Of a DNA stretch of 64,000 nt, positions 152-43,900 are shown piece by piece. The stretch covers positions 1 through 64,000 of IMG/VR virus record IMGVR_UViG_3300013286_000010; one strand, written 5' to 3'. Made by a program: the position numbers and the translations under genes. The DNA is from a virus. Position 1 is the stretch's first letter, and each line of letters begins with the position of its first letter. The notes beneath the pieces were generated by a model. It ran no database searches and had not been told where the DNA came from. It worked only from the letters and a program-made list of their open reading frames with translations.

Positions 152-1117
152 ATGAGAATTAGAGAACTACTATCAGAAGGTGGAAATGTATTTGCAGGTA
201 AAACAACTGGCATTAGGCTAGAATATATTGAACCTACTCTTGCAGCATACTTTACAGAATTAAAACATATTTTTCCAAACAAAGCTGGTATTTTTAGTAA
301 ACAAAATTTTGTACCACTAGGGTCGGTTGGTAAGAAAGCAGTTAGCGGAGATATCGATCTAGGCGTTAGCGCAACTGATTTACTAGACAAAGCAATGAGC
401 GACGAGAGTATTGCAGCATGGGGAGTTGATCCCAAAGCAGTACAGGCAGAATTTGAAGCCCTGCAAAAGCGTGCCAGAACCAGTACACCAGAACAGCTAC
501 GCATGAAAGCGTTCCTAAAACAATTAACATTGTATATCAACAGTCATGCACCTAGCCTGTACTGTGATGAAAAGAAAGTTACTGATGGCAACATCTTTGG
601 CTTATTTCCACAGTTAACTGACAAAGGTGAACATGTAGGTAGCGGTGTTCAAATTGATTGGATGATCGGTGATCTAAATTGGTTAAAGTTTAGCTATCAC
701 TCTGCGGCATACCCAGAACAATCTAATGTTAAAGGGCTGCATCGTACACAGTTAATGTTGAGTGCATTCCAAGTAGCCAATTTAAGTTTCAATCATGTGG
801 CTGGCGTTAAGGATAAGGCAACAGGAGAAGTAATTGCCCGTGATCCAGACGATGCATTAAAAGTATTAGGTCAACGTTTGGGATTTAAGATTACACAAGC
901 CGATGCCGAAGACTATTACAAACTACACGCATTGTTAAAAGCTAGATTAAAACCTGAAGATTACAACACATTGTTGAATGTATACTTTAAAATTTTAGAT
1001 AGCACTCGTGCAGATATTCCGGACGACATGCAGGACGAATGGCGTAAGCGCAAGGATGCACTAGGCCTAACTGGCAAGTTCCTCCCGGACAATTCAGCAT
1101 TAAAGGTGAGACAATAA
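152..1117 (+). CDS. Pol-beta-superfamily nucleotidyltransferase with putative capsid-targeting leader
   Basis: hG-S...D-x-D motif (LGSVGKKAVSGDIDL), third Asp in VQIDWM; N-terminus MRIRELLSE. Confidence 0.75.
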   Translation: MRIRELLSEGGNVFAGKTTGIRLEYIEPTLAAYFTELKHIFPNKAGIFSKQNFVPLGSVGKKAVSGDIDLGVSATDLLDKAMSDESIAAWGVDPKAVQAEFEALQKRARTSTPEQLRMKAFLKQLTLYINSHAPSLYCDEKKVTDGNIFGLFPQLTDKGEHVGSGVQIDWMIGDLNWLKFSYHSAAYPEQSNVKGLHRTQLMLSAFQVANLSFNHVAGVKDKATGEVIARDPDDALKVLGQRLGFKITQADAEDYYKLHALLKARLKPEDYNTLLNVYFKILDSTRADIPDDMQDEWRKRKDALGLTGKFLPDNSALKVRQ

Positions 1118-2961
1118 TGAGCGGCGTAGCAGGTGCAGATCGAGTTAAAAGCAGATTAGACTTTCAACAGTTTCTCGCTTCTTATCAACATTTACTGGGA
1201 CAGTTCCCGGGCTTTGTCAGCATGAAGCCAAGTGGTAGTTATAATAGCAATCCAGACAAACAAGACTTTGGTGACATTGACTTAATCGTACATATCCAAA
1301 GCGAAAAGGATAAGGCAACACTAAAGAAAGAACTTCAAGCGTTCTTTATGAAACAACCCGAGACTGTTATTGTTCCGTTCAGTAGTGCCAAACATGCTGG
1401 TAAGCGTACATACAATGCAGGTGAATTAGTCAGTGTTCGCTTCCATGATGATGCACTGGGCTACAGCGCACAAATCGATAACATTGTAGCATTGGATCAT
1501 TTGGAAGCAGGATTCAAACAGCAATTCTTAGACATGCCCGCAGAAATACAAGGACTGGTCTTGGGATTAGTTAAGATCTCTACTATCGAAACCGAGCCTG
1601 CTATCTTATTCCAAAAGTTAGGTATCAAAGCACAACCACAATTAGAACCTGATCAAGAATACGAGTTTAATTTAAGCGGAGTTGAATTGCAACTGCGCAA
1701 GGTCACTTACGAACCAGGTACATTCAAACAAGTTGGCAGAGACATAATCTGGAGTAGTAGGAATTACGACGACCTACAGAAGTTATTATATCAATACGAT
1801 TTGAATACCAACTTTGACAGTTTATTACAACAGGCTAAACAAAACATACGCAACCCACGTAGTAATCAACGTATGCAAGGTGTATTCAGCAGTATGATCA
1901 GCGTTAAGAGCGGCGAAGTCGGAACTCAAAAAGGTGCAGACAAAGAGGCAGCGTTGGCTAGAGTACAACAGGCATTTGGTGAATCTCGTAGATCAATATT
2001 TAGATCGTTGATGGAAAGTAATAATAAAACTGTTGCATTTGCATTTGGACGATTTCAACCTCCGACAATCGGACACGAACTATTGATTGTTGCTGTTAAA
2101 GAGGCCGCTGCTCAAGCAGGTGCCGATCATGTCATTTATGTTTCTAAAACACAGGATGCTAAAACTAACCCATTAGACATCGGAACTAAAATGGCATACT
2201 TACAAAAGATGTTCCCGGGAACAAACTTTGTAGCAGCCGATGCAACTGTAAGAACACCAGTTGAAGCAATCAAACATTTAAATCAAAAGTATAATGGGTT
2301 AATTTGGGTTGCAGGTTCGGATCGTTTGCCTGTATTCACAAAGTTGGCAAATGACTATAACGGTAAAGAATATCAGTATCAAAATATACAGGTCATTTCT
2401 TCCGGGGCACGAGATCCCGATTCAGAAGGAACTGAAGGCATGAGTGGTACAAAGATGCGTGCTGCGGCTTTGGAAGATAACTTGCAGGAATTTATGCAAG
2501 GACTACCAGGAAATATAAGTGAGCAAGATGCTATGAAATTAATGAACTTAATAAAACAAGGTATGCAAAAACCTGTCAAAGCAGCACCTGGCCCTAAATT
2601 GCCTAACACAACTGAAGCGACATTTAAGAAAAGTCCTTATGGTCGTACTGCCGCTAGCCAACAGCGTGCTAAAGATTTATTAAATCCTCCAAAGCCGCCA
2701 GAGCCAAAGAAAGATGAACCAGTTGCAGAAAAGATGATGCCAGCAAGTAATTTTGCAGGAACTCCTAAAAACAAATTAGGTTCAGCAGGACAATTAAAAG
2801 GCAATATGAAGCGTCCAGCAAGAGCAGGTGACCTGGTAGGTAGTGCTGAAGAAAGCCGAATTGTTAAAGGCGTTCCAATCAGTGAAGATGTTCAAAACAT
2901 CATGGACGCATTGATCAATAAGATTATATTCAATGAAGCAGTATCGAATAAGCGTAAATGA
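1117..2961 (+). CDS. Fusion: Pol-beta-fold nucleotidyltransferase + HxGH (cytidylyltransferase-like) nucleotidyltransferase + basic tail
   Basis: SGSYNSNPDKQDFGDIDL and AQIDNI in N-half; FGRFQPPTIGH, GSDR and MSGTKMR motifs in C-half. Confidence 0.75.
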   Translation: MSGVAGADRVKSRLDFQQFLASYQHLLGQFPGFVSMKPSGSYNSNPDKQDFGDIDLIVHIQSEKDKATLKKELQAFFMKQPETVIVPFSSAKHAGKRTYNAGELVSVRFHDDALGYSAQIDNIVALDHLEAGFKQQFLDMPAEIQGLVLGLVKISTIETEPAILFQKLGIKAQPQLEPDQEYEFNLSGVELQLRKVTYEPGTFKQVGRDIIWSSRNYDDLQKLLYQYDLNTNFDSLLQQAKQNIRNPRSNQRMQGVFSSMISVKSGEVGTQKGADKEAALARVQQAFGESRRSIFRSLMESNNKTVAFAFGRFQPPTIGHELLIVAVKEAAAQAGADHVIYVSKTQDAKTNPLDIGTKMAYLQKMFPGTNFVAADATVRTPVEAIKHLNQKYNGLIWVAGSDRLPVFTKLANDYNGKEYQYQNIQVISSGARDPDSEGTEGMSGTKMRAAALEDNLQEFMQGLPGNISEQDAMKLMNLIKQGMQKPVKAAPGPKLPNTTEATFKKSPYGRTAASQQRAKDLLNPPKPPEPKKDEPVAEKMMPASNFAGTPKNKLGSAGQLKGNMKRPARAGDLVGSAEESRIVKGVPISEDVQNIMDALINKIIFNEAVSNKRK

Positions 2962-3196
2962 TGTTCCGCAAGACAGCGGCGATGATGCATATCTAGCACC
3001 CGAAGATCCTATTCATGCTCTAAAAGCAGTTAGTATTATGGGCGGATTAGGTGGGCAACAGCGTCTTGCAGAATACAATGCTACATTAAGACCAGTAGTT
3101 GCGGGCAACAATAAAGGGCAAATACAACGCGAACAGAACATACGTCCTGGCACCGATGCGTGGTTTAAACTTTGGTTTGGACAAAATAATAAATAA
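2933..3196 (+). CDS. hypothetical protein
   Basis: 87-aa ORF filling the gap between neighbours, same strand. Confidence 0.65.
   Translation: MKQYRISVNDVPQDSGDDAYLAPEDPIHALKAVSIMGGLGGQQRLAEYNATLRPVVAGNNKGQIQREQNIRPGTDAWFKLWFGQNNK
3190..3195 (+). promoter_or_regulatory. late-promoter-like TAAATA
   Basis: ATAAATA 8 nt upstream of Dps ATG; similar to T4 late consensus TATAAATA. Confidence 0.5.
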
Positions 3197-3202
3197 TATA
3201 TC

Positions 3203-3646
3203 ATGGATAAATTAATTCAACTTACTCGCATTGGTTTTGGCACAACTTTTAGTTTTTATGTAAAAGTTCATTCTTTTCACTGGAACGTAGAGGGCAGTGA
3301 TTTCTACGAATATCATAAACTGTTTGAAGAAATCTACACAGAAGTCTACGGTGCAATAGACCCCTACGCAGAAAATGTGCGTAAATTAGGGGGATACATT
3401 CCTACTAGTTATCATAACCTCAGCATGTTAACCAAGATCGAAGACGAAGATCGTGTGCCCAACAAAGACGAAATGATACAAGAATTGTTACAAGACAGTG
3501 AGCGTATACAGATTGTTCTCAAGAAAAACTACGATGCTGCTGAAGCTGCGGGTGAACACGGGCTTTCAAACTTCCTTGCCGAAAGGCTTGACAACCATAA
3601 AAAACATGCATGGTTCCTGCGTGCTAGTTTAAAAGGATCAATGTAA
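3203..3646 (+). CDS. dps: Dps/ferritin-like DNA-protection protein
   Basis: HSFHWNVEG..F..YHKLFEE.Y and D..AE ferroxidase motifs, C-terminal KHAWFL. Confidence 0.9.
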   Translation: MDKLIQLTRIGFGTTFSFYVKVHSFHWNVEGSDFYEYHKLFEEIYTEVYGAIDPYAENVRKLGGYIPTSYHNLSMLTKIEDEDRVPNKDEMIQELLQDSERIQIVLKKNYDAAEAAGEHGLSNFLAERLDNHKKHAWFLRASLKGSM

Positions 3647-4017
3647 TGCGAGCTAAAGATTTTGTTAACGAAGTTAGAGGTGATGGTAAGATGCATCCTC
3701 ATATGGACAACGCTAACCAAGGCGCTGTTCGTATGCGTGATATCGGTGGATACGATCGTACCTATCACCTAAACCGTATTTGGATGGCCGCTGCAATGGC
3801 TGATGGTAAGAGTGCAAAAGCTGTTGATATGGATAGTGCCAGTTTTGTCGAAAAGTATAATGTGGCATTTCCTTACACTGATGCAGAACACTTGATGATA
3901 TTGGCTGCTATGGCCACTATTCCAACTGATAGCCAAGAATTAACCAAACGTGGTAAAAGTAAAGAACCGGATGATACTTATACAGTAAGTCCCGTAGCAA
4001 ATTGGATGAAGAAATGA
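3646..4017 (+). CDS. hypothetical protein with putative capsid-targeting leader
   Basis: TAATG coupling; N-terminus MRAKDFVNE. Confidence 0.75.
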   Translation: MRAKDFVNEVRGDGKMHPHMDNANQGAVRMRDIGGYDRTYHLNRIWMAAAMADGKSAKAVDMDSASFVEKYNVAFPYTDAEHLMILAAMATIPTDSQELTKRGKSKEPDDTYTVSPVANWMKK

Positions 4018-6125
4018 ACAACGAATTTAAAAAAGTAAAATCAAATGGCGAAACACGATTCGTGTTAGAATTCTCCGACGGTGGATCAACAAGTGCAGGC
4101 AGTATAGCTAGCGTAGAAAAACCACTAGGTGAACTACAGCGTAGAGCTGAACCGCCAAAACCTCGCAACTTCGTTGCCAAGAATGCCAAGATGGGCGGGG
4201 CTGGTCAGCACAAGGATAAGAAGAAGGCTGATAAGCAGGGTGATGTTAAACATCGTAAACCATTTGCTGAAGGCGATGTTGTTCCACTAGGTAAAAAGCA
4301 TCGTGGAGATTTAGAGGATACACGCTCATGCCCCAAGTGCGGTGGCGACTTACAAGGTGGAACATACATGGGACACCGAGTAAAAGTGTGCCATCCTTGT
4401 TCACAAGTTTATCTACCACCTAACAGCGGTATTGACCAAAAGGGTAATAAAATAGGCGAGCAAGGTGTGGCGGAAGGCTCTGAACAATATGATGAAATTA
4501 GTGACAAAGCATTCGATGAAGGATATGCTGGGTATTCTTATCGCAACATTTATCCCAAAGGCACTAGAGAATATGAGGAATATCACGAAGGGTGGTACGA
4601 CGGTCGCTTGGCTTTTGAAAAAGCAAACGACTACGAAAGCGACTTTTATATTTCAAGACCGGAGCAAGGTGTGGCGGAAGGTGAAAAGACTATGAGTCGC
4701 GCTGCCAAAGGTAATGAGAAATATGGCAAGGACGGCATGAAGGCACTAGCCAAGGCAGGTCGTGAAGGTGCTAGCGATGAGAAGCTAGATAAGATTCGAG
4801 ACAAGTATGACAACTATAATGAAGAAGCCAAACACGGTCTCTACTACAATGTAAACAAACGCAAGGCTGCTGGAACCAGTAGACCCGCATCAAGTCCCAA
4901 AGCACCCACAGCACAGGCGTGGAAGGATGCAGCCAAAACTGCTAAAAAAGAAAGTATAGCAGAGAGTGAAGGACGTTGTATGCAGTGCGGTATGAAAGAC
5001 TGCAAGTGTCCAGGTACCAGTTGCAAATGCAAACCTATTGCAGGTTGGGTACCGGGCAAAGGTTTCAAGAAAGCCACGGACGAAGCTGCCAATGCCGCAC
5101 AACAAGCTGCCATTGCAATTGCCAAAAAGAAAAAGCAAGGTGTAGAAGAAGAGTGGAGCAAGAAATACAAATCTAGTATCAACTGTAGTCATCCAAAAGG
5201 ATTCAGTCAAAAGGCTCACTGTGCCGGTAAGAAGAAGCACAATGAAAGTATGATGACAATGGAAGCGGTGTGCCCAGATTGCGGCATGTGCCAAACACAC
5301 GGCAATATTAGCGAGATTAAAAAAGGTGCTAAAGATTCAAATGGAGTTAGCAGTTGCTGGTCAGGCTATCATGCGGCTGGTACTAAAAAAGGCCGTAATG
5401 GTGGACAGGTTCGCAACTGTGTGCCCAACGAAGGTATAGCAGAAAATCCAGACTGGTACAATGACGAGGCAAATAGTATGTCTAGTAGTCAACTAAAAAG
5501 TCTATATAAACATGCAATGAAATTACGCCAAGCAGTTAAACGAATGCAGGCACAGGGTGATACATTAGAACCATGGCAACAGAGCAAAGTTACCAAAGCT
5601 GCTGATTATTTAGATGCTGTGTTCAATGCGGTGGACGACGAGCATGATATGGGCGAGCAGACTGAATTAGAAAGTGTAGGTATTCCATCATACGGCGTGG
5701 GCGGTTATCGCAATCGTGGCGATGATGAAAGACACGATCTAGATGATCCAGAACTACAACGTAATCGTCAAGAAGTCACATATTACAACATCACAATCGA
5801 CGGCAAACCTATTAATCCTGAACCAATCTTTGGTCGTAGTGCTACAATTGCATGGGGTAAGAAACATGCTGCCACTGGCGTGGATCTTTCCAACGCTATG
5901 ATATCTCCAGTTAAGTATACCGAAGATGCCTATATGGAATCACTGCAAAATATGTTAGAGCGTTCTGTGAGTCAAGCACAACATAACCTAATGGTAGGTG
6001 TTGCACACAATCCAGCATTTGCCCAAAAGGTAAAAGTTAAACGAGCTGTTGGACAAGAGTTTGCCAATGCAGATCAAGGTCACGACATTAGCAAACTACC
6101 AATCCGTGTTCCAAAAAAGAAATGA
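4014..6125 (+). CDS. multi-module putative polyprotein (head internal/cargo protein)
   Basis: Start probably ATG 4014 (ATGA overlap); about 13 short modules separated by E-ending linkers (EQGVAE x2, QGVEE, ESIAE, EGIAE, KPFAE). Confidence 0.75.
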   Translation: MNNEFKKVKSNGETRFVLEFSDGGSTSAGSIASVEKPLGELQRRAEPPKPRNFVAKNAKMGGAGQHKDKKKADKQGDVKHRKPFAEGDVVPLGKKHRGDLEDTRSCPKCGGDLQGGTYMGHRVKVCHPCSQVYLPPNSGIDQKGNKIGEQGVAEGSEQYDEISDKAFDEGYAGYSYRNIYPKGTREYEEYHEGWYDGRLAFEKANDYESDFYISRPEQGVAEGEKTMSRAAKGNEKYGKDGMKALAKAGREGASDEKLDKIRDKYDNYNEEAKHGLYYNVNKRKAAGTSRPASSPKAPTAQAWKDAAKTAKKESIAESEGRCMQCGMKDCKCPGTSCKCKPIAGWVPGKGFKKATDEAANAAQQAAIAIAKKKKQGVEEEWSKKYKSSINCSHPKGFSQKAHCAGKKKHNESMMTMEAVCPDCGMCQTHGNISEIKKGAKDSNGVSSCWSGYHAAGTKKGRNGGQVRNCVPNEGIAENPDWYNDEANSMSSSQLKSLYKHAMKLRQAVKRMQAQGDTLEPWQQSKVTKAADYLDAVFNAVDDEHDMGEQTELESVGIPSYGVGGYRNRGDDERHDLDDPELQRNRQEVTYYNITIDGKPINPEPIFGRSATIAWGKKHAATGVDLSNAMISPVKYTEDAYMESLQNMLERSVSQAQHNLMVGVAHNPAFAQKVKVKRAVGQEFANADQGHDISKLPIRVPKKK
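4458..4681 (+). repeat. 20-nt perfect direct repeat GAGCAAGGTGTGGCGGAAGG (4458-4477 and 4662-4681) encoding EQGVAEG
   Basis: Identical copies 204 nt apart; degenerate copy AGCAAGGTGTAGAAGAAG at 5134-5151. Confidence 0.9.
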
Positions 6126-6913
6126 AAATAAACGATTTATTAGAGTCAGACGACTACGAAATACATAACCAAGAAAAACTAGATCGAATATTGGTCAAGT
6201 TATGTGAGATGGTCATTGAAGCACAACAAGAAGATAGTGAATACTATGGTATGGTTGCTGCCGGTGTCCTCGATCCTGATAATAATTTAGCAGCTGGAGT
6301 AAATTATCCTCATGAAGAAGGCGGTCGTGTCCATGCAGAAAGAGCCGCAATGGAATTATATGAAAGCCAATATGGATCACCGGTTCCCAAAGGCAGCATC
6401 ATTATTACAACATTAAGTCCGTGTAATGAACACGCAGATCGAACAGCAGATAAGCGCCATGGCGAAAGTTGCACTGAACTAGTCAACAATTCTACTGTGC
6501 ATAAAGTATACTGCGGATACATGGATCCTAGTCAAGGTGACGACGAGCACGATGAGAGAACATTCACTTTAGAAGAAACTCGCAACCCTGCTATACGCGA
6601 GCTTTGCAAAAAGTTTGCAGATACATTCCTAGATGGTCATGTGTCTGAATCAGCAGCTTGGCATCGCAAGGCAGGCAAAAGTAAAACAGGTGGACTAAAC
6701 GATAAAGGCATTGCCAGCTATCGTAGAGAGCATCCCGGAAGTCACTTACAAAAAGCTGTAACTACTAAACCTAGTAAATTAAAACCCGGAAGTAAAGCTG
6801 CCAAACGCCGTAAATCATTCTGTGCTAGAATGGGCGGCAGTAAAGGTCCAATGAAAAAACCCAACGGTGAACCAACCCGTAAAGCCCTAGCATTGCGTAA
6901 GTGGAACTGTTAA
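6122..6913 (+). CDS. Zn-dependent cytidine-deaminase-like domain fused to a basic DUF6321-like domain
   Basis: HAE and SPC..C motifs; C-terminal AW.RK.GK...GGLN..G.ASY...RRKSFCARM...ALRKWNC; leader MKINDLLE; junction HVSE/SAAW. Confidence 0.75.
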   Translation: MKINDLLESDDYEIHNQEKLDRILVKLCEMVIEAQQEDSEYYGMVAAGVLDPDNNLAAGVNYPHEEGGRVHAERAAMELYESQYGSPVPKGSIIITTLSPCNEHADRTADKRHGESCTELVNNSTVHKVYCGYMDPSQGDDEHDERTFTLEETRNPAIRELCKKFADTFLDGHVSESAAWHRKAGKSKTGGLNDKGIASYRREHPGSHLQKAVTTKPSKLKPGSKAAKRRKSFCARMGGSKGPMKKPNGEPTRKALALRKWNC

Positions 6914-7107
6914 TGCGTATCTTTGAACTTGTAGAAAACTTTGCAGATGGTCGAAATCCCCAAGACAAGGGCGACAGCAAGAGACATGGCATCAATACCA
7001 AAGCCAGTGTAAGTAGTCTGCGTAAAACTGCCAAACAAGGTGGTCGCAAAGGACAATTAGCTCATTGGCTAGCCAATATGAAAGCTGGACGAGCAAAGAA
7101 GAAATAA
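6913..7107 (+). CDS. small basic protein with putative capsid-targeting leader
   Basis: TAATG coupling at 6911-6915; MRIFELVE/NFADG. Confidence 0.7.
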   Translation: MRIFELVENFADGRNPQDKGDSKRHGINTKASVSSLRKTAKQGGRKGQLAHWLANMKAGRAKKK

Positions 7108-7233: not shown

Positions 7234-7776
7234 ATGTATAACTTTATAAAACAACTACAAGAAGGTAGAGTAATTAAAAAATTAGAGCAGGTAACATTGC
7301 CCTATGCTCGTGACGGTCTTGGTCGTAGTCTAAGTAAAAAAGCAATAGATTATCATTATGGCAAATTATACGGCGGATATGTAACACGATTCAACGCCGG
7401 GGAGGGTGATCCAGATTTTAACGAAGCCGGTGCTTTCTTACACAGCATTTATTTCCCACAAATGCAGCCACCAAAAAATTCAAATCAACCTGCTGGTAAA
7501 TCTCTAGAATTTATCAACCAGCATTTTAAAAGTTTTGACAAGTTTAAAGAAACGTTTGAAAAAATTGCTATGGGCATACAGGGCAGCGGATGGGTCTATC
7601 TTGCCAAGAATGGAGAAATCAAAACTATCGTTAATCACCAAATCAAGAATGATATCATACTGCTAATAGACTGGTGGGAACACTCTTGGGTTCTGGATTA
7701 CCAAGCGGACAAGAAAGGTTATTTAAATAACCAATGGAAAATTATTAATTGGAATTTAATTAACGAAAGATTGTAA
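7234..7776 (+). CDS. sod: Fe/Mn superoxide dismutase
   Basis: LPY..., HYGK, FN.AG...H, GSGW and DWWEH motifs, four metal ligands retained; leader MYNFIKQLQE. Confidence 0.85.
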   Translation: MYNFIKQLQEGRVIKKLEQVTLPYARDGLGRSLSKKAIDYHYGKLYGGYVTRFNAGEGDPDFNEAGAFLHSIYFPQMQPPKNSNQPAGKSLEFINQHFKSFDKFKETFEKIAMGIQGSGWVYLAKNGEIKTIVNHQIKNDIILLIDWWEHSWVLDYQADKKGYLNNQWKIINWNLINERL

Positions 7777-31943: not shown

Positions 31944-34900
31944 TTAAAATCCTTCAGTTAATGGTTTATTGTTATCATCTAACAAGGGAGATCCGTCATT
32001 ATCAGTTAATGTAATATCTCCTCCGTAGTAGTACTTATCAGGTAATTCAGCTGTTTTCTCTTGTAAGAATTTAGCAGGCAATGTTGTGCTATCTATAATT
32101 GATAAAGTTCTTCTAGAATTATTAGGATCAACGTCATTCCATTCTGCAGATTTATCAAATTCTTTTTTAACAACTGCTAACTTAATCCGATCACCGACAC
32201 CGCCTGTAATATTTAATATTAATTGTTGTGTATTCGATATAGTAAATTCGGGAGGTAAGTATTGTAGTCCTCGGTATACATATCCTTTAAACGAATCAGG
32301 TTCGATAGAATCTGTGTAGACCCAGACTTGATTTGTTGATGTTACTGTATATGCCTTGCCAATTTCTGTGGTATACGGCAATCCCGCAACAGTAGATGTT
32401 GTTCCAATTTTAATACCTTTGGTGTCCGGACTGTCATATGTGATAGTAGTATCGTGTATATAGGTTCCAGATTTTCTTAATAATCTACCACCATAAAATA
32501 CCTGTACCTGATCTTCAGGATTGACGATACTATTCAATATTATACCGTCGCTAATTAATACCTCATTGGTGCCAGTAACTGTTAATTTTTGTGTAACAGT
32601 ATTGATACTATATGTCGATACTCCATTACTTGTATAATGAACTTGTGTTTTAATTGTTTCTGTAAAAGGAATAGTTTGATTAACACTTTGGTCTATTACT
32701 TTAGTACCTGGAGCAGAATAACGACTAGGAGCTGTACCTAATGTACCTCTTCTTAATTGACTCAATACAGTCTTACTTGCCTTCATAAATTCAATACGTT
32801 CACCGTCAATAATAACAACGCCGGGTATTTTTTTACTTAACATAGGTTGTGTAAGAACAGTAGCATCAGCCACATGAATTTCAGTATCTTTATAAGACAA
32901 TGGGCTGGTTAGATAAGTTGTATTTTCTTTAGATAAACGTTTAAATGAAGTTCTATTAAACATATCATTGAAAATTCTATAACCTAGCAGAGTAGTAGCC
33001 AACCGTTGATCAACCATACTCCTAATAACAATGGAGTCAGTTGATAGAATTGAATATGCATCACTAATTTGAATTGTTAATTGATCGTCCAATACATCAA
33101 AATCTAATCCGCTAGTTAGAGGTGTTCCGTTCAATTGTACCCATACATAATTTATATTAGTTACAGGGCGAGTAACTTTAAATCTTCTATTTGGATTACC
33201 ATCAAATCTTTCTGTTCTTATCATCATATCGTCATTATCGTTATATGTGAGAACTTTGATTTCTCCTGTAGAAGTACTAACACTTAATTGTAATTTAGGA
33301 ATTCCTGCGTTGTCATAATATATATCATAGTCATAATCTTTATCTCCACCAGTTGGTAGATCTACTATTGCAATTGCATCTCCGCTAACTAGTGCCACAC
33401 GTGATATATCAATTGTCAATAAATTATCAGACACTGTATAATCAAATCCAGGAGTTAGTTTATTTCCATTTCTATATGCCCTAACTGTTCCGTCGTATGT
33501 GTTAAATGTTCCTTGATTGTTGATTAAGAATACATTATTTGTAGACGATGTTACCTGATAGTAATCAATATGAGGAGGTGTCAATTGCTTACGAATCTTT
33601 GTATTAGGATTATAATACTCAACAATAGGAGCAGCAACAATTGGATCTATCTCATTTGATTTTATGTTTATACAGGTAGCAGTAAATGCAGAAGTATTCA
33701 ATGCAATAGTCTGTTCACTGATCTCGTTAAAATAATCGTATTGTGTACCAAAGAACCAAGCCTGTATAGTGCTTGTGGTCCCCGGAGTTAATCCGTAAAC
33801 ATTAACAGCAGCACGATCGTTTTCTATATTAGAAAATGTTAATTCAAAATAAGGTAATGCAGTTGTAATTGTAGTTATTGCAGATCCGTTAACAGTTACA
33901 TATGCGCTCTTGACAGAACTAGTTGATGCTAAACTAGAAACTTGAGCAATAGTTTCAAATCCAAAAATAGTAGAACTACCGGGCAAGTGTGTTGCAGAAG
34001 CAGAATCAATTATTCCATTCTCACGTCCAATATGACCGCCACCTATACTTATGATGGTATAACCTAGATACCCACTAACTGATTGAGGTCCAACTACAAT
34101 TTCATTGTGTTCCCAATCTATATAAAAGAATGGGCTATCAAGTTCAGTAGGAATAAAATCACTTACACTAAACATTTTACCATTAAAGGAAACTGTGATA
34201 TTGTTATTGCTTGGAGGTACTATACCTAATTTTCTGCGAGTAGTAACATTAGATATTATGTCTATTGAATGTGAAAATACAACAGGAGCTCCATAAAATG
34301 TTTTAGTATAGACATTTATTCCTACACTGTCAGATGCTTGTCCAGGTAAAAATTCTTCCGGAGCATGGCTAGTATCCGCTGTATAAAAGGCGTCGCCGTT
34401 AATAATAACTTCAGGAGAACTGCTATTTCCGTCTATTGCACTATCAAGTAAGTTAGAATTCTCTTCATATTTCCAGAATTCTATAACATAACCTTTTGGT
34501 ATTTCTGTGGTAGAAAAGTCACTAACTTCTATAGAACTCGAAAGTGCATAGACTGCACTAACTAATACATTTGTTATCTTAAATACCGTAGACGTGGTAC
34601 TGATAATATTAACATTTTGACCCGCTTCAATACCGGTAACTGAATCTAAAATAAATGTATTAGAACCAATAGTAGCCGTAGTGGTTACTACAGCCGTTGT
34701 ATAAAATCCAACATCGTCAGCATACGGGACAGTATCAAATGTATTTGTAGAGCCAGAACCGTATAAAAAATCCCATGCAGAATTTGTAAATGGCAATCCT
34801 TCAATTATTGTTTTAGGATAATTAATACCTGAAATTAATTGATCAAATTCTGGATTCTCTGGATCAAAACCGGGCATACCAGAAGCCGCTTTATAATAAT

Positions 34901-37900
34901 TTTGAATCCTCTCCGAAGCATTGAAAAGATTTATACTCTTTGTGTATATTACTTTTAATACTTGAGAGACTAATGGTACATAATTTAAAAATACCACTTT
35001 ACTAAACTTTTTTGTATATCCGTTGTACTGCGCTGTAAAATACTTAATTGTATAATCCGAACGTAGCACAACATTGCCATCTAGTGTAATAGTAATTTTA
35101 GATTTGTCTGCATCTGCTAACCAGTTTAAAGTAAACTCTTCAACCGATCCGTTACATACAAATTGATCAACTACAATATTATTTCCTATTTGATCAGTTG
35201 ACCCCACTCTATCAAATTTCATACCTATTTGATTAGTACGAACTTGTTTATTTGTTAAATGCGTGTAGGCAATTGCTACTACTCCAGTTGTTCCGCCTTG
35301 CAACTTAACAGTCGGTTGTCGATAAAAAGTGCTAGTAGTGTTATTAGTAATCTCAATTGAAATTACTTTTCCAGACTCTATATGAGCAATTGCTCTAAAA
35401 TCTTCAATTACTTGATAGTATTCGTTGAACACCAAAACCGTTGGAGCAGATGTATAATTAGTCCCAGGATGTGATACCGAAATATGATCAAGAGCAAAAC
35501 CTCTATTAAGCAAAAATGACTCTTGAGGTTTAGGAAGATTTAAACTTTTGATGTAATCAGTAGTAGCATCTACATCACCGACAGCAAAATTGTCTGTTTG
35601 ATAGTAATCAACCAAGTTGCCGTTTACCCAACGATACGGATTATCAAAATCAGTTGAAAAAGTATTTGTAGGTTCTACCAATGTATGGTTAGATGTAAAG
35701 CTACGAACAATTGTATGATAGGGTTTTACTTCATCTAGATATTGTTCGTAGTAATCGCTACTAGAGATTTTGTAAACAGGTCGTTGATCTAATGCACCTG
35801 CATAATTTACTACGTTAATGAATGAAGTTTTAAATGCCCAGTCCAATAATTTCTGTTCAGACAATGCATACTTAACTGCCTTGAAGAAGAATAAATTCCA
35901 ATTAACTTTTAATTCATTAACAAAAATATCATCTCTCAATGCAATCAACATATATTGCAATTCAATATCTGGAGTTTGATCATACAATGTTTGATCATAA
36001 CTATTATTTTGATCAAACCCATAGCTGCTTAATGGCAGGTCCCAGATAGTATCTAATATTTGTATTGTGCCATTCTCATTGTAGACAATATTGTAATCAG
36101 TACTAAACGATCCAACAATACCCAAAGCAGTTTTTTCTAATATTATGTAATGACCCGATCCGCCATTTTTAATTTTAACATACTGGCCTGCTGACAATGT
36201 TAATTCGTTTATTTCATAAACATCATTGACTGTAGCTGTAAAATCCAAGAAAGGATTATAATCAGTACTGACCCAGTCTACATATTTCCAATATAGAGGA
36301 GTATTATATTGTTGAGTTGCTACTCGTGCCCAAGTTAATGTATCAAGGTCGTAAATAAATTTAGACCATCTGTTTTTAAATTGGGTATCAGCTAATACAA
36401 TAACAGTATAGGGTCTAACTTCTAATGTAGGCGCTTCTGTAAATCCGTTGCCAGCATTGACAACTTTGACAGATATAACCCTACCTTGATTGTCAATTTC
36501 TGTAGAAATTTCTGCATCAGATTTAACATCACTAATAATTTTAACTGTCGGAGATATCTTATATCCAAATCCCGGATTATCAATTATAACAGTTTGAATC
36601 TTACCGTTATCAATTACACATCTTAATTTAGGAATGGCAAATAATCTAGTGTCAATTATTAATAAACCTTCATTATCTTCAACTGTTTGATCGTACTCGT
36701 GGCTATTAATGTCAGAAACTAACTGCTGTTTATTTAGATTTGCAAAACTATAATTTCCAGTTATTCTATTTTTAAGTAGAACAGAATTTGTAAATTCCAC
36801 TAAATTTCTCAACGCTTCCAATCTATCTTTGAACAAAGTTTGTTGAGGTCTAATGCCAATTCCATATCGCGTTCTAGATGTTAGTGTTGGATTAGGAACA
36901 GGATTTCCTAACTTGTCATGTCCTAATAAACTATCAATTAATTTTTTCTCAAGCAATGCATTAGGTCTGCTGGTCGCAGAACCTTCTTGCAATAGCAACC
37001 ATTCAGTATGGCGGTTTGTACTTGATTCAGCAATATTTTTATTAGTAGAATCGATTGCGACATTTAAATGTATTCTATTACCGACTAATAAAGATCCAAT
37101 ATTAGCTAATGCAATTGCATTAGTATCAATAATTGCCGCATATTGAACTCCGTATGCAGTAGGATTATAGATCATAGATGCAACTTGATAGCTACTGGCT
37201 CTTCTATTTTTAACATCAGGAACTGTAGATTTATTCTTAACCCAGTAGTAATAACGAGTGCTGAATGAATTCGTTACAGAATTATAAACTTGTTTAGAAG
37301 ATATTACACTATCATCGGCAACTTTAGGTTGTCCGCTGATTCCTTCTGTTAGGCCCAAGGCAGTATCTGCCAGTTGACTCCACTCACTAGGAAGATAACT
37401 AGATCCAACCCACTCATATACATCGATACTAGCACCTGGGAATAATTTGCCCCAGTTATTCTTTCTATAAGTTAGGTCGCTTTGTTCATACCAAACATAT
37501 TTTGCAGTGCTCAAATCCCACCATAGCTCACCTACGTGGTCTTCTAACCAGTTTGTTTCGGAGTCAATAACGGTTGAAGTAGTTCCTGCAGAATAAACTG
37601 CTGGATCAAATGTTGTTCTATAGGTCAATTCTTGATCAGCAATGCCAACGATCTTTCCTTTTAGAGGATCAACAACATCAAGATAGTTGATAATTTCTTC
37701 AGTAAAAGAGTTAATCAAAGTCACACGTTGTATTGCATCAACCATGGTCAAGCTATCTTGTTCTCTTAAAATTTTAAAACCATTAGTAGATTTATCAATC
37801 TTATTAAACTGATAGAAGGCATTAACTGTATTTGAATTTTTTAAAGAAGGTGCACCTACTAGTATGCAATCATCAATTGTTACGCTAGTTCCGTAGAATG

Positions 37901-40900
37901 TGTCGTCATCAATAACAGTTGATTCTAAATCGTCTGCTAATACGAATCTTGTGTCTTTTCGGTTGTAAACATAGACTGTACCAGAATTTTTAATGGTACC
38001 ATAGAACATAGTCGAGTCAACATCAAATATTGATTCTGTGTTTGTAATATCAAACGTACTATATAGGTTCTTATTATTGCCAATTGCTGAAATAACTAAT
38101 GAATCATTAGATACAGTAATATCAATGTCCTTACCAAAATACATACCCGGACCAGGTGCAGGGTTTGTTAAAACAGACTGTAAAACAAATAGGCCGTTAG
38201 TAGCAGTATAGATTGCAACTTTACCATATGACAAATTGTCATTTTTAGAGTAAGGCGCCGATACAAACAAATATGCACCGTTCGGTGATACTAATAATTT
38301 TTCTCCAAACTGTCCATATTTTCCAAAAGGTGAAACTAAAGTCTGTGAGAATACTGCAGAAGTTCCTGTAAATATAGAAACTAATCCAGTGTTGGTAAAA
38401 TGTCCGGGTGCTCCGATAGCAAGTATGTTAGCATTATCAGATCCACTGATACTATATCCCCATTTACTTCCGATAGTAGTAACTGACGAAGTAGTAAGTT
38501 GTTTAACATATGCTACATTAATTGAATTAGTAGCAGTAGTGATCTGATAAGCATATACAGTTCCGGTGCCGGTGTTGTTTGTGCCCGGAGCTCCGACTAA
38601 CATTAATTTTGTATTGATGTTACGTTGAACGTAAATTGAATGTCCAAAGTGTTGATAACTAGAAGTAGATACCGGTACTGTTAAAACTGCCTGTGTATTT
38701 TCCTCAAGTATTTGGGGATTGATACTACTAATTTTTATTAGACCCTGTTCTACATAATTAGAATAATTTGATCCTGTAGTGGATACATAGCTAGCCAACG
38801 GGGCACTAGCAAAGATTAAACCATAGGTTGTTGTACTAAAAGCAGTATCATCATAAACCACACAATGACCAAAATCTGTAATAGGTGCCCGCTCAACATC
38901 GTAATAATGCAGTGTTCCATCATTTAATGTATAATTTAATTGCCCGCGGAAATCATCTCCTGTCTTTTTATAAACAGAAACTTTACCTCGAATTGCAATG
39001 CTGGTTGCAGTATATGCAGGTGATCCAACAACAAATATATCGCTGCCTTTTCTCTTGCTGATGCTGCGTCCAAGTTGTTCGTTTTTATTTGTACCTGTAG
39101 AAATTACAGGAGTAAAGTTATTAATTTTCTGATAAACTTTCCATTTGTAGTTGTCATCATTGTCTACCCAGAATATAGTATTGTCTGAGAATTTTAATAG
39201 TTCGTCATCTGTAGGTAAATTATCATAAGACGATGTTCTTGCACTCTTAAATTTATACAACGGTATTGGGTCAACTCCTAACGAGGTTAACGAAATAGAA
39301 GGAGAAGCAACAGTGAATTCAGATACAGAAGGAGTTTTGATAACAGTGTATATTCCGTCAGCATCACTACTAAATTTAGATACTGATACAATATCTCCAA
39401 CTGACAAACCGTGGAATAAATTTGTTTTAAATGTAATTTCTCCAGAGTAAGTAACTACATCTACTCCAATAATATCTGCATCTACCCTAGAGTAACGATA
39501 TACATCCCAGTCGCTATTTTTTTTAAATCCCATCCATACAGTGTCACCTTCTTTAATAGTGCCATTGTTTGCAAGATTTAACAAACTAGATTCGTTGTAT
39601 GCGGTTGCAGTTACATCATCAATTCTTACATAACCTGCTGTAATTAATTCAAATTCAAAATCAGTATCTGTTTCTACAGGAAACGTTGTCAACGGATTAT
39701 AGTCCGTAGGAACTATAATTTGATCAGTTACTGCACTGTAGTAGATTAAATCATTAGGTGCAGAAGGTGCAGAATTGACAAAGTTAACAACTTGCGGATT
39801 TTCAATGAACTTACCTTCTGTTAACGGAACTTCTAATTCTTGATAAGTTTCATATGCTCCATAATATCCAATACGGAACGCCCACTCTTCTGAATATCCC
39901 AACTGCCCTTGCAAGTTATGAATACTAGCCTTAGCAAGTTTTGTAATAGCATTACGGGTTCCTTTTTCTTTGATAAATCCTTGATAGAATTTATATTGAG
40001 CAATAGGATTAGTGAAGATATTGTTTAGATAAACACGAGGTGTATATCCAATTAAGTGCTGTGCCATTTTTTGTTGGCCACTATCAAAGTTATCAATATC
40101 TAAACTATAGAAATCTTCAAATTGATTAATCTTGTAATCAAAGTTTGGTAACAATCCAGCAACAGGTTTGTTACCTAGTAAGGTCCACAAATTAAAATCA
40201 AATTTTGCAGAACCAGTAATATTTTTATTAGCAGAATAATATTGACTATTGAATCGAACTACATCACCTGATTGATAATCAGTATATTGCAACCAATCGT
40301 TTATTTGAGCACTGTCATAAACAAACCCAGGACTAAAATAATCACCATTCCAATTTGCAGTACGGAATCCCGTTAACTTCATTCTGCGTTGACGGTATCC
40401 AGTTTCGATATCATAGATAGTATCGTTGAAAATTGTAGTGTTATTAAACACCATTGCATGTTCTTTTTGTACAGAATATATTGTAGCAAAATAGATACCG
40501 TCTGTAGAGTTTGATGTTTTAATTGTGCAAACTCCGTTGTCTCTAGTTACAGAAAGATTTTGTCTAGGAAACGATGTGCCGTTTGCCGACAACAAACTGT
40601 AATCGTAAAAACTATCAAACACACTATCAACAACTGTATTAGCTAATGAATATTTTATTTGATTTGCAAAAGGACTTACGGTGATTATACTGTTGTTAGA
40701 CCAATTCTGACTAGTCCAATATAAAAATTCTTTAGAGGAGAAGTTCCAATCGATAGTTGTTGCAAAATCTGAATTATATTCATCAAATATAAAACCTTGG
40801 GCTTCTAACCATTTTCCGTAACCAACGATTATATCATATACTTCTTGTATAGTAGAAAATTCTGTCTTATAAGGAATCTGTTTAACTTCTGTTTCAAAAC

Positions 40901-43900
40901 TACTCGCTAGCTGAACCGTCGTTCCACCTATGATAGGCAAAGTAGGAATTGATTGAAAGTATACTAGATTAAATGTTGTTCCGCTTTGATGACTAGTTTT
41001 TACTCTGTAATAATTATTATTATAAGAAACTAGTTGACCTGCTTGATAAAATGTTCCTGTAGGTGCAGAATTAGCAGATGTTGTATCTGCCGACGAAAGT
41101 CCAGTTGCTCCAGAAGACGAACCGCTAGTCCATGTTACATATGATTCAGAAACTCCACCAACTGTTATTGTAGGCGTATTAGAATTTCTAACTGGCATGT
41201 ATATATCAAAATAAGGATTACTAGAATCGTAACCTTGGATAGAATATTTGTCATTTATCTTCTGTACAACTAGACCAGAAATGCTTACTTTCTTTACAGG
41301 ATTACTAGTGTTTAAAATTAAATTATAATTTTCTTGAGGCAGTAACGCACCTGGACTAGTGCTATTTGGTTCGTATGCATCAATGACAATTTGTAGTTTA
41401 TCTTTGCTAACAAACCCGCCAACTTTATAGAATAAATTAAAATCAATATAAGATAAATCTTGTTTTAATTGATCAATATAATTTGTAGATCGTTGTTGAC
41501 CCACTTCGGAAACATAAACACTATACCCACTAGTTTGTGTTTTATCAACATCATCGTGAATTTTAACTGCGGTAATATTTAAAAATTCTCCAGCAGTTCC
41601 ATATGTCCATTGTCCGGCGGCATTTTTAATTACTCTGCTAGTATCGTACATCGATGATGCATAGACAGCAGGTTTAGTTAATGCTAATAATTTTTGTACA
41701 ACAAACGGCCAATAGCTACTACGTCGCCACGATGTTTCAGCAGGACCCTGATCACCAAATTTCCAAGGCTGACGCGTGTTATAATCAGTAACGTCAGTTA
41801 CTAAATGTGCAGGGGGCGGTAATAAATGACCAAAGCGGTCAACTGGAATTATTCCTAATAAACCAGGACGAGCATAAACGCTATTGGTAGTGTTATTGTG
41901 ACGATTGTATCCGTTTGATAAATCAGTCCATAGTTTAGTATTTGTAGATAAGTAAGGAGCATTACCATATTCTGCAACCCACCATGATGGCCTTTCAGCA
42001 AATCCTAACATTTCCCAAGGATGAGTATGAGGTTTGTCAGTATCATAAAAATATTTAGATACGCCTCTCCAATATCCCGGAACATACGTTGAGTGAGCTG
42101 CATTATAGCTACCTGTATAATTCCAAGTAAATTCAGCAGTGTTAATACCATCATATAAAATGCCGCTGTCTTCAAACACAGTATTAGTAGTATAATCTAT
42201 GCCGTAGAATCCAGCCCATTTAATGAAGTCACTTTGTAGAATAGAATTAATTTCGTCTACAGAGTAATCAGTAGTTCTAAATGCTCCGGGCATTACACTG
42301 TTAACATCTAATAATTCTGATCTGTATTCTGTTTTGATGTTATTGTAAACACGTTTTTCAAATTCAAGAATAATAGCATCTCTATAATCATTGTAGGCTA
42401 CCATTAAGCTACCATCATGACCTTGAATAACATTTACAGGAGTAAGATATGTGTTATCTTCAAATATGCTAGGAGCAAATCTTGGGAATAATCCCAACTT
42501 AGTAGGAGTAGAAGGTACAAAAGATCCTTCAGTACTAAAGTAATCATCAACAACTAATACATCACCCTTTGTTAAAGATTTTAAAATTCTAACAGATGAA
42601 TCATTAGTTACAAACTCGTAGTCGTGATCACGTAGTAATTGTCCTCCATTTAAGTAAACAATAATAGAACGTAGGCTTAACGTAGAAAGACTAAAGTCAC
42701 TAGTAATAGGATATACAGTATTACGAGAATCTGTTACTGTCCATGTTCTAGTAGTTTTATCAGTTCCGTAGGCAATCATGTCTGATAGATAGTACGGAGA
42801 CAATAAATCTTTATCTACATTTAATTCTTTTAATGCTCTGTCAAGGCTTCCTATTGGATTAGTTTGTGTATCAATTTCAGAAATCTTCTTTAAAAATAAC
42901 AACTTGAATTGATTATATTGATCAGCAGATTTTGTTAGTGCATCGATAACACTGTGTTCTTTCTTACCAATAAAAAAGTTTGCAAATGCTAACGGATTAG
43001 CATTAGAAATTAATCTAGTGCCATAACTAGCAACACCAAAAACATCTCTTAAATTTAAAACGCCAGAATAGTCTCCGTGAAGATGACGATACCTGGTTAA
43101 CGCTGTTTGTAAATGATCACTCAATTCACTTAAGGTTAAAGATGCGATTGGACCATTTAATGGATTGTTAGTTAACGACAATGGCAATTCATAATAGCTA
43201 GAAGTAGCTCCATGAATAATAGGAATCGGATATGGTTTAGAAGTTGCCCAAACATTGCCATATGTACTATTGTTTATAAATTTGAAATAAGTGTCAGCAG
43301 TCGGTACCGTTGTAATATTCTGATTTGTTTCAGAAATATCAAATGTACCGTCCATGAAATAGTTTTTAAACAGATAACTGCCTAGCCCTGCACTATTTTT
43401 ATATTTTAGCGGGAATCCCAATACTGAATCATTTGCACCTGTGCCTATGTCATAACTGAATAATTTGTTCCCTGTAAAATTAGTCAAATAATGTGCAGTA
43501 TCACTATAACTATTTCCGTTACTGTCAAACAAATCAAATAATGGTGCCTGATTTAATGTGGGATGTTGTTGTGCATATTGCCACTTACTGCTATCAAACC
43601 ACCAATTTGTTCCAGCATACTGGTTGCCTGTGTTTATGCTAACATTAACTTTGTCCGATACATTGATAATATTAACTAGCTCTATTCTCGGATACCCACC
43701 AACGGTTACAAAGTTAACTTGAAAAATTTTGTTACGTACTGTTGCATCAGTGTCGGCATTAAAGATAATAGTATTTCCTTGCTCCAGTAAAGTTCCATCA
43801 ACATAATATCCTGCAGAACCTTCTACTTTATTAAATGCGTCTAAAGTAACTGTATCAATAAAATCGATGTTAGAAATTCCAATTTCTCCAAAATTAAATA

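Follow-up and report, generated by a model that had tools for sequence, protein, structure and literature searches.

We analyzed the first 64 kb (hereafter the window) of the 83-kb IMG/VR contig IMGVR_UViG_3300013286_000010, which is estimated to represent 23% of its genome, with respect to one open reading frame (ORF) of 703 amino acids (aa), designated P0001 (positions 4014-6125, plus strand). Its product consists of separate small modules joined by linkers that end in glutamate. These linkers resemble head-protease cut sites and also serve as exchange points, and the gene therefore probably encodes a precursor of small proteins carried in the capsid; we assign a probability of roughly 60% to the reading that P0001 is a polyprotein that is packaged and cut by the head protease. 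A polyprotein with protease linkers had already been proposed in an initial annotation of the window, and the proposal is well supported by comparison: (i) the contig encodes a gp21-family protease; (ii) the leader of P0001 mimics a capsid site; (iii) Glu at P1 and a hydrophobic residue at P3 are maintained in 230 contexts; (iv) stand-alone relatives carry leaders like the capsid-targeting sequence (CTS) of T4; (v) internal twin-arginine translocation (Tat) signals occur in relatives; and (vi) a mosaic relative was found in virions of cyanophage S-SM1. The cleavage, packaging, and injection that the annotation also invoked we infer from these observations.

The source phage is an uncultured, T4-related giant phage of freshwater (i.e. 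lake) habitats. The family-B DNA polymerases of Phosso, Atu_ph07, CBB, and GAP32, all giant phages, share 43-51% identity with its own, and the stretch bearing the gene was present in freshwater and lake metagenomes from several studies. The ORF is one real gene, as initially annotated. It encodes 703 aa and has homologues, and its ATG overlaps the upstream stop codon (ATGA), so that P0001 is translationally coupled to the preceding gene. A protein identical to P0001 is also encoded on a 197-kb contig. All homology lies in the plus frame, and we therefore regarded minus-strand ORFs within the gene (e.g. 4890-5300) as shadow ORFs. No Pfam family spans the whole of P0001, and searches of Pfam, NCBIfam, PHROGs, and PDB sequences, as well as Foldseek searches of PDB and the ESM Atlas, assigned a function neither to the complete protein nor to the majority of its modules. 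A eukaryote-type 2A skipping site considered at GIAENPD was rejected by inspection, since NPGP is absent from the motif, and 2A skipping sites are not known to function in bacteria.

The gene for the head protease lies beyond the window. Its Peptidase_S77 match (contig positions 67036-67464, E = 2.3 × 10−27) exceeds the curated cut-off, and the product aligns to T4 gp21. The order of the head block is that of T4, i.e. portal, a small ORF, an acidic ORF, protease, putative scaffold, and Gp23-family capsid protein, with portal, protease, and capsid protein identified by Pfam and the scaffold by position only. T4 gp21 cleaves after Glu in the context L/I-x-E, Asp at P1 prevents cutting, and the 10-residue CTS of IPIII is sufficient to package foreign proteins in T4 (PMC9026906). 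Leaders in the T4 record comprise MKTYQEFIAE (IPIII and IPII), the 19-residue MKTFKEF...ITE (IPI), and MAKINELLRE (gp24). The P0001 leader ends in V-L-E (FVLE), and this leader type is common to 138 of 334 relatives. Another start, M-K/R-x-x-E/D-F/I/L-I/L/V-x-E followed at once by a module, was found in 105 of the 334 and resembles the leaders of T4 IPIII/IPII and gp24.

Internal linkers obey the same rule. Upstream of the WSxKYK module, for which 230 distinct contexts were compared, P1 was Glu in 100% and P3 hydrophobic in 95%, irrespective of whether the module followed a linker or an N-terminal T4-CTS-like leader. The pattern hydrophobic-Ala-Glu occurs five times in P0001 (0.9 expected, P ~0.001) and six times in the putative scaffold (1.3 expected); no such enrichment was seen in the polymerase or in a 4,297-aa protein encoded in the window. 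In the capsid protein there is a single LAE, at the position where T4 gp23 is cut, which we take as the putative maturation cut.

The N-terminus of P0001 copies this capsid site. Its residues 14-47 can be aligned ungapped with residues 36-69 of the capsid protein of the same phage, FVLE being placed over HLAE. The alignment score was 53, as compared with 22.3 ± 3.9 for shuffled sequences (0 of 2000 as high; z ~8), and hhalign matched a profile of 124 such N-termini to the capsid N-terminal profile with a probability of 90.9% (E = 1 × 10−6). Past the Glu, the family consensus (SAT.G.TSSGSIAS) is even nearer to the capsid's SATAGATSAGNIAT than P0001 itself.

An AlphaFold2 model of P0001, built with 50 relatives, displayed small confident units separated by low-confidence gaps (predicted template modelling score, pTM, 0.27), with most linkers inside the gaps. 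The initial annotation had named one integrated fold as the outcome that would speak against it; the prediction is of separate small units. It had also suggested looking for the modules in other contexts, and they do recur, both in different orders and as stand-alone genes. In a HMMER scan, 3,799 clusters (50% identity) matched parts of P0001 at E ≤ 0.001, most of them just one stretch, chiefly residues 372-478. Among 119 relatives, the first 86 residues were always N-terminal, and the internal pieces occurred in varying order. The relative P0003 is 86-92% identical to P0001 across shared stretches; it lacks exactly residues 150-217, i.e. the unit between the two QGVAEG linkers, and carries a 117-aa insert placed exactly at EGI(A/G)E.

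Homology ends, counted per site over 240 relatives, reached 6.4 at hydrophobic-Ala-Glu, falling on the Glu, and 4.0 at GVAE, as compared with 0.1 at hydrophobic-x-Lys or -Gln and 0.3 at hydrophobic-x-Asp. On P0001 itself, breakpoints fell at residues 86, 217, 270, 313-317, 357-361, 369-377, 473-480, and 548-550, with weak ones at 613-652. The junctions backed in this manner are those at residues 86, 154/222, 270, 317, 357, ~375-379, 477, and 548, and weakly 613-652. Lake contigs from four sequencing runs break or rejoin at linkers of P0001, and in some of them the QGVAE joint is attached to the end of unit 8 or of unit 9; since the contigs aligned to the window are mixed relatives, they show joints and not population-level excision. 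The modules are thus independent units that are exchanged at Glu-ending linkers. All linkers listed in the initial annotation were found in place, and its view of separate modules stands. Its count of about 13 micro-domains does not, as homology breakpoints delimit about 11 units plus a 19-aa leader. NISE-434, one of the proposed linkers, coincides with no breakpoint, and residues 380-477 move as one block in the phage family; conversely, the breakpoints add a junction at DMGE-548 that had not been listed.

The commonest linker, QGVAEG, is constrained at the DNA level. Both copies in P0001 are encoded by the identical 20 bases (two copies in the window, 0.01 expected). In a codon survey of the source contig and 24 related loci, which together contained 52 distinct GVAE sites, GGT GTG GCG GA(A/G) was used at 42 sites, with GTG at 85% (background 16%) and GCG at 81% (background 9%). 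Because QGVAEG is identical at silent positions, it is probably also a recombination joint, i.e. a short homology patch for in-frame gain, loss, and swap of cassettes. The main linker thus probably has two roles, a possibility not weighed in the initial annotation. Hydrophobic-Ala-Glu junctions other than GVAE showed ordinary codon usage, and their Glu is therefore constrained at the protein level. Two constraints act jointly: DNA identity at one joint and a protein-level rule at all joints.

Relatives of P0001 provide further hints of cutting. Seven of them (P0103, P0106, P0116, P0138, P0180, P0202, and P0232) contain internal Tat signal peptides, located two to six residues past an E-linker and as deep as residue 878. 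They consist of RRGFLKG and a hydrophobic stretch, followed in six of the seven by AxA. Such signals work only once exposed and therefore support cutting.

Virion data come from cultured cyanophages. The T4-GC119 family, whose members include S-SM1 SSM1_115, Syn9 gp114, S-RIM8 gp147, and S-SSM7_236 and which is labelled as a structural protein, shares CWxGY, WSxKYK, the WQQSKVTKAADY helix, and DUF6321 with P0001, its neighbour, and its relatives. Sullivan et al. 2010 (PMC3037559, Table S8) list it as detected in purified virions of S-SM1, at 13 peptide counts; S-PM2 lacks the family. We confirmed SSM1_115 as a T4-GC119 protein; it carries DUF6321. A protein of the metagenome-assembled phage DSL-LC02 bridges both sides, with E-values of 5 × 10−13 and 1 × 10−8 to P0001 and of 6 × 10−31 and 1 × 10−20 to SSM1_115. 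A cytidylyltransferase, T4-GC190, was likewise reported in purified S-SM1 virions (PMC3037559), and the S-SM1 protein begins with the CTS-like MKKFSAFLNE. In Kyanoviridae, multi-module T4-GC119 proteins of 440-990 aa, annotated as hypothetical, adjoin the small terminase gene and share several modules.

DUF6321 is part of the deaminase gene next to P0001, not of P0001 itself, and was found in 538 phage records. In T4-like cyanomyoviruses it stands behind a CTS-like leader or within multi-module T4-GC119 proteins, and small genes beside it begin with MKSYNEFISE and MKNFQEFQE. In four T7-like podoviruses it forms a stand-alone protein of 71-93 aa without leader or hydrophobic-x-Glu; T7-like podoviruses are not known to encode a gp21-type protease. 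In three of these four phages (S-RIP1, S-TIP37, and HTVC142P; L033, L035, and L036), the DUF6321 gene is flanked by the scaffold and capsid genes, an arrangement that hints that DUF6321 is head-associated in T7-like cyanophages and pelagiphages too.

With respect to the modules themselves, the functions readable so far are likely a zinc ribbon and weak likenesses to DUF7230 and DUF3008. Residues 48-83 matched DUF7230 (PF23876) with E = 0.05 and 14.2 bits (curated cut-off 27) and phrog_1359 with E = 0.0023; among relatives, 12 of 97 matched DUF7230 at E ≤ 0.001. Residues 102-137 contain CPKC..CHPC and are predicted by AlphaFold to form three strands with a predicted local distance difference test score (pLDDT) of 83-90. 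This region matched Pfam DZR with E = 0.004, under the cut-off of that family, and gave a weak Foldseek match to ZifS (E = 0.35, probability 0.99); for residues of unit 2, zinc-ribbon look-alikes were the only Foldseek matches. Unit 3 (residues 155-222) had a pLDDT of 34-42. The Rmf-like label that it had initially received was rejected, as Pfam returned nothing at E < 10 and the unit is dissimilar to the part of P0107 that carries RMF (PF04957).

We propose the following mechanism. The leader and the copied capsid site would bring the precursor into the assembling prohead core, where the gp21-family protease, cutting after hydrophobic-x-Glu, would remove the leader and then cleave about 10 linkers. 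About 11 pieces of 22-101 residues would be freed, several of them basic or zinc-binding and most of the larger ones about the size of T4 IPI* and IPII*. These pieces may remain associated with the DNA and be carried along into the next host. Targeting, cutting, retention, injection, and the role of each module are conjectural steps in this scheme. It is possible, if doubtful, that the arrangement goes further: one short sequence would be both a head-protease site and a DNA homology patch, making the gene an in-frame cassette array analogous to an intragenic integron, with which giant freshwater phages assemble, reshuffle, and deliver injected kits of small proteins. The N-terminus would then hijack the capsid maturation signal as an address, and cassettes of some relatives would expose Tat signals that re-export pieces to the periplasm of the new host.

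Several observations weigh against processing in the head. The gene is located ~60 kb from the head genes, in a replication and metabolism region adjoining the DNA polymerase, and ATDE-357 sits within a predicted helix. The codon-locked linker reflects a DNA-level constraint beyond what a protease site alone explains. Modules are also found in phages without a gp21-type protease (podoviruses), and a module homologue in 201phi2-1 is unmarked in a record that flags virion proteins detected by mass spectrometry; being a head protein is therefore not an intrinsic property of the modules. The kinship of the S-SM1 virion protein with P0001 is no more than mosaic (direct BLAST E = 0.19, not significant), and the T4-GC119 member of Syn9, gp114, was undetected in virions (PMC3037559). 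Some of these points would be explained if P0001 remained an uncut, multi-module protein in the cytoplasm, with E-linkers that are a translated recombination joint plus flexible spacers and with modules that act jointly, or as a scaffold of binding motifs, in host takeover. The surrounding replication and metabolic genes, the modules in podoviruses that lack the head protease, the silent positions fixed in QGVAEG (one codon set at 42 of 52 sites), and the module swaps exactly at this joint all agree with such a protein. We nevertheless consider it unlikely, because non-GVAE junctions use ordinary codons and yet keep to the Glu and P3 rule across the 230 contexts, N-terminal leaders end in the same motif, the N-terminus copies the capsid maturation site, and internal Tat signals would be useless in an uncut protein.

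Less likely still is a prohead core or filler protein, chopped like T4 gp22, gp67, and gp68, whose pieces are expelled or are mere DNA counter-ions and not effectors. The putative scaffold shares the hydrophobic-Ala-Glu enrichment, several pieces are very small (22-49 aa), their net charges are mixed (+7 to -10), and the cut pieces of T4 core proteins mostly exit the head. However, the modules are folded units and are also encoded by stand-alone genes, the Tat signals of relatives suggest action in a living cell, and the modules are hypervariable among phages whose capsid protein, across thousands of clusters, is 91-100% identical. Hypervariable modules beside a near-constant capsid fit arms-race cargo rather than an assembly part. 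Finally, the polyprotein might never be packaged and instead be cut in the cytoplasm, either by a protease of the host or by a different phage protease, as the location of the gene outside the head block would allow, packaging of P0001 being itself deduced. We regard this as very improbable: the linker motif is the gp21 motif, the leader mimics the capsid cut site, the gp21 type is the only protease found on the contig (~23% of the genome), and related multi-module and leader-bearing proteins occur in S-SM1 virions.

Read as a packaged precursor, P0001 has its closest counterpart in the internal proteins of T4, a system that counters host restriction. Like IPI, IPII, IPIII, and Alt, it has a short N-terminal propeptide ending in hydrophobic-x-Glu, equal in length to that of IPI (19 aa), and relatives carry near-copies of MKTYQEFIAE. 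Further likenesses are the gp21-family protease in the genome, small and often basic predicted products, content that is hypervariable among close relatives, and a gene outside the head block. Whereas a T4 internal-protein gene encodes one protein from which one short propeptide is removed (Alt is also trimmed C-terminally), P0001 comprises about 11 unrelated modules with about 10 putative internal sites, its leader copies the capsid maturation site, and its main linker is an exchange point with a fixed DNA sequence.

The inner-body and ejection proteins of phiKZ, 201phi2-1, and SPN3US are likewise giant-phage head proteins that are cut after Glu at several sites, with ejected cargo, and the proteases involved (gp175/gp245) are gp21 homologues. 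In contrast to the shuffled mini-domains of P0001, these are large single proteins with long propeptides, and their motif is S/A-x-E with a small P3, whereas P3 is hydrophobic in P0001. In sequence, P0001 is linked to these phages only by a weak match between its C-terminal module and gp383 of 201phi2-1, a protein that is not listed among the virion proteins.

A third parallel is provided by polyvalent proteins, in which one polypeptide contains many unrelated domains; these are presumed to be delivered together with the DNA and to be split apart proteolytically afterwards (Iyer et al. 2017, PMC5512222). With about 11 units, P0001 falls within the range of 2-15 unrelated domains in a phage of the portal-terminase type, and a T4-type portal is encoded on the contig. 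Polyvalent proteins, however, have large enzymatic domains and often their own zincin-like peptidase (MPTase), while P0001 had zero matches to any enzyme or peptidase in Pfam, NCBIfam, and PDB; it has a CTS-like leader and would depend on cutting in trans at a short, fixed motif. T4-GC119 proteins contain hydrophobic-x-Glu spacers as P0001 does, but they are encoded in the late region, between the terminase genes, they have a different N-terminus that lacks the capsid mimic, and none of the four sequences inspected showed the QGVAEG joint. In the literature, T4-GC119 is regarded as hypothetical. In the searchable literature we found no description of such a polyprotein, the closest concepts being T4 internal proteins and polyvalent proteins (Iyer et al.).

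The coordinates of all features are compiled in Table 1. P0001 belongs to a translationally coupled gene cluster (152-7107), four members of which have T4-CTS-like leaders, and the whole locus may encode packaged enzymes. The basic E-linked tail of the neighbouring cytidylyltransferase resembles unit 1 of the polyprotein. In related contigs, the conserved order is a ferritin-like gene, a leader gene, the polyprotein (443-809 residues), leader-bearing genes, small leader genes, and the DNA polymerase; in several loci, the leader-bearing genes after the polyprotein include a homologue of the window's deaminase gene. In the window, a ferritin/Dps-like protein and an Fe/Mn superoxide dismutase are encoded on either side of the polyprotein, the former being syntenic in relatives. 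The T4 late-promoter word TATAAATA is under-represented in the window (2 occurrences, 9.3 expected), and this phage clade may therefore use another late promoter.

Table 1. Features of P0001, its locus, and related genes (window positions unless stated otherwise)
Feature	Position	Strand	Description
Neighbour gene	152-1117	+	CTS-like leader MRIRELLSE
Neighbour cytidylyltransferase	1117-2961	+	E-linked basic tail; 42% identical (E = 7 × 10−46) to S-SM1 T4-GC190
Ferritin/Dps-like protein	3203-3646		
Neighbour gene	3646-4017	+	CTS-like leader MRAKDFVNE; syntenic in relatives
P0001	4014-6125	+	Candidate polyprotein, 703 aa
N-terminal leader	4014-4070	+	19 aa; predicted beta-hairpin; putative capsid-targeting propeptide; length of the T4 IPI propeptide; ends FVLE
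Capsid-site mimic, aa 14-47	4053-4154	+	Ungapped mimic of own major capsid protein across the putative maturation cut (RHLAE/SATAGATSAG..)
Unit 1, aa 20-86	4071-4271	+	Capsid-like arm and basic DUF7230-like peptide (PRNFVAKNA..); ends PFAE
Unit 2, aa 87-154	4272-4475	+	Likely zinc ribbon (CxxC..CxxC), pLDDT 83-90; ends QGVAE
Codon-locked joint, copy 1	4458-4477	+	20 nt, encodes EQGVAEG
Unit 3, aa 155-222	4476-4679	+	Acidic Tyr-rich cassette between two identical joints; absent from P0003
Codon-locked joint, copy 2	4662-4681	+	Identical 20 nt
Unit 4, aa 223-271	4680-4826	+	Helical MSRAAKG..KYGKDGM module; ends YNE(E)
Unit 5, aa 272-317	4827-4964	+	Basic GLYYNVNKRK.. module; ends SIAE
Unit 6, aa 318-357	4965-5084	+	Cys-rich module, 6 Cys; ends ATDE
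Unit 7, aa 358-379	5085-5150	+	AAQQAAIAIA helix; ends GVEE
Unit 8, aa 380-477	5151-5444	+	Most widespread block: WSxKYK..C..C, Cys cluster, CWxGY..NCV; ends GIAE
Unit 9, aa 478-548	5445-5657	+	Helical hairpin (..WQQSKVTKAADYL..); ends DMGE
Unit 10, aa 549-649	5658-5960	+	Disordered acidic stretch and confident alpha/beta domain (pLDDT ~95); ends NMLE
Unit 11, aa 650-703	5961-6122	+	Basic helical DUF3008-like tail (phrog_16759)
Neighbour deaminase gene	6122-6913	+	Leader MKINDLLE, deaminase domain, VSE linker, DUF6321
Neighbour single-module protein	6913-7107	+	64 aa; leader MRIFELVE
Fe/Mn superoxide dismutase	7234-7776		
Large ORF	31944-44837	-	4,297 residues; tail/baseplate region
Peptidase_S77 (T4 gp21) protease gene	66967-67596 (contig, beyond window)		Identified by Pfam
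T4-GC119 gene of DSL-LC02 (L029)	928-2925 (L029)		Kyanoviridae; metagenome-assembled phage
T4-GC119 gene of Syn9, gp114 (L046)	3877-5208 (L046)		Kyanoviridae

The cultured cyanophages S-SM1, S-RIM8, and S-SM2 carry related multi-module or leader-bearing proteins, and the idea is therefore directly testable. If it is true, a leader combined with hydrophobic-x-Glu spacers would provide a simple rule to recognize cargo in metagenomes, and the linker would offer a natural way to load T4-type capsids with several cargoes. Should the pieces be packaged and injected, these uncultured lake phages, an abundant and large group with thousands of capsid and polyprotein clusters and contigs of up to ~390 kb, would deliver a changeable kit of a dozen small proteins at infection, a far richer version of the T4 internal-protein system.

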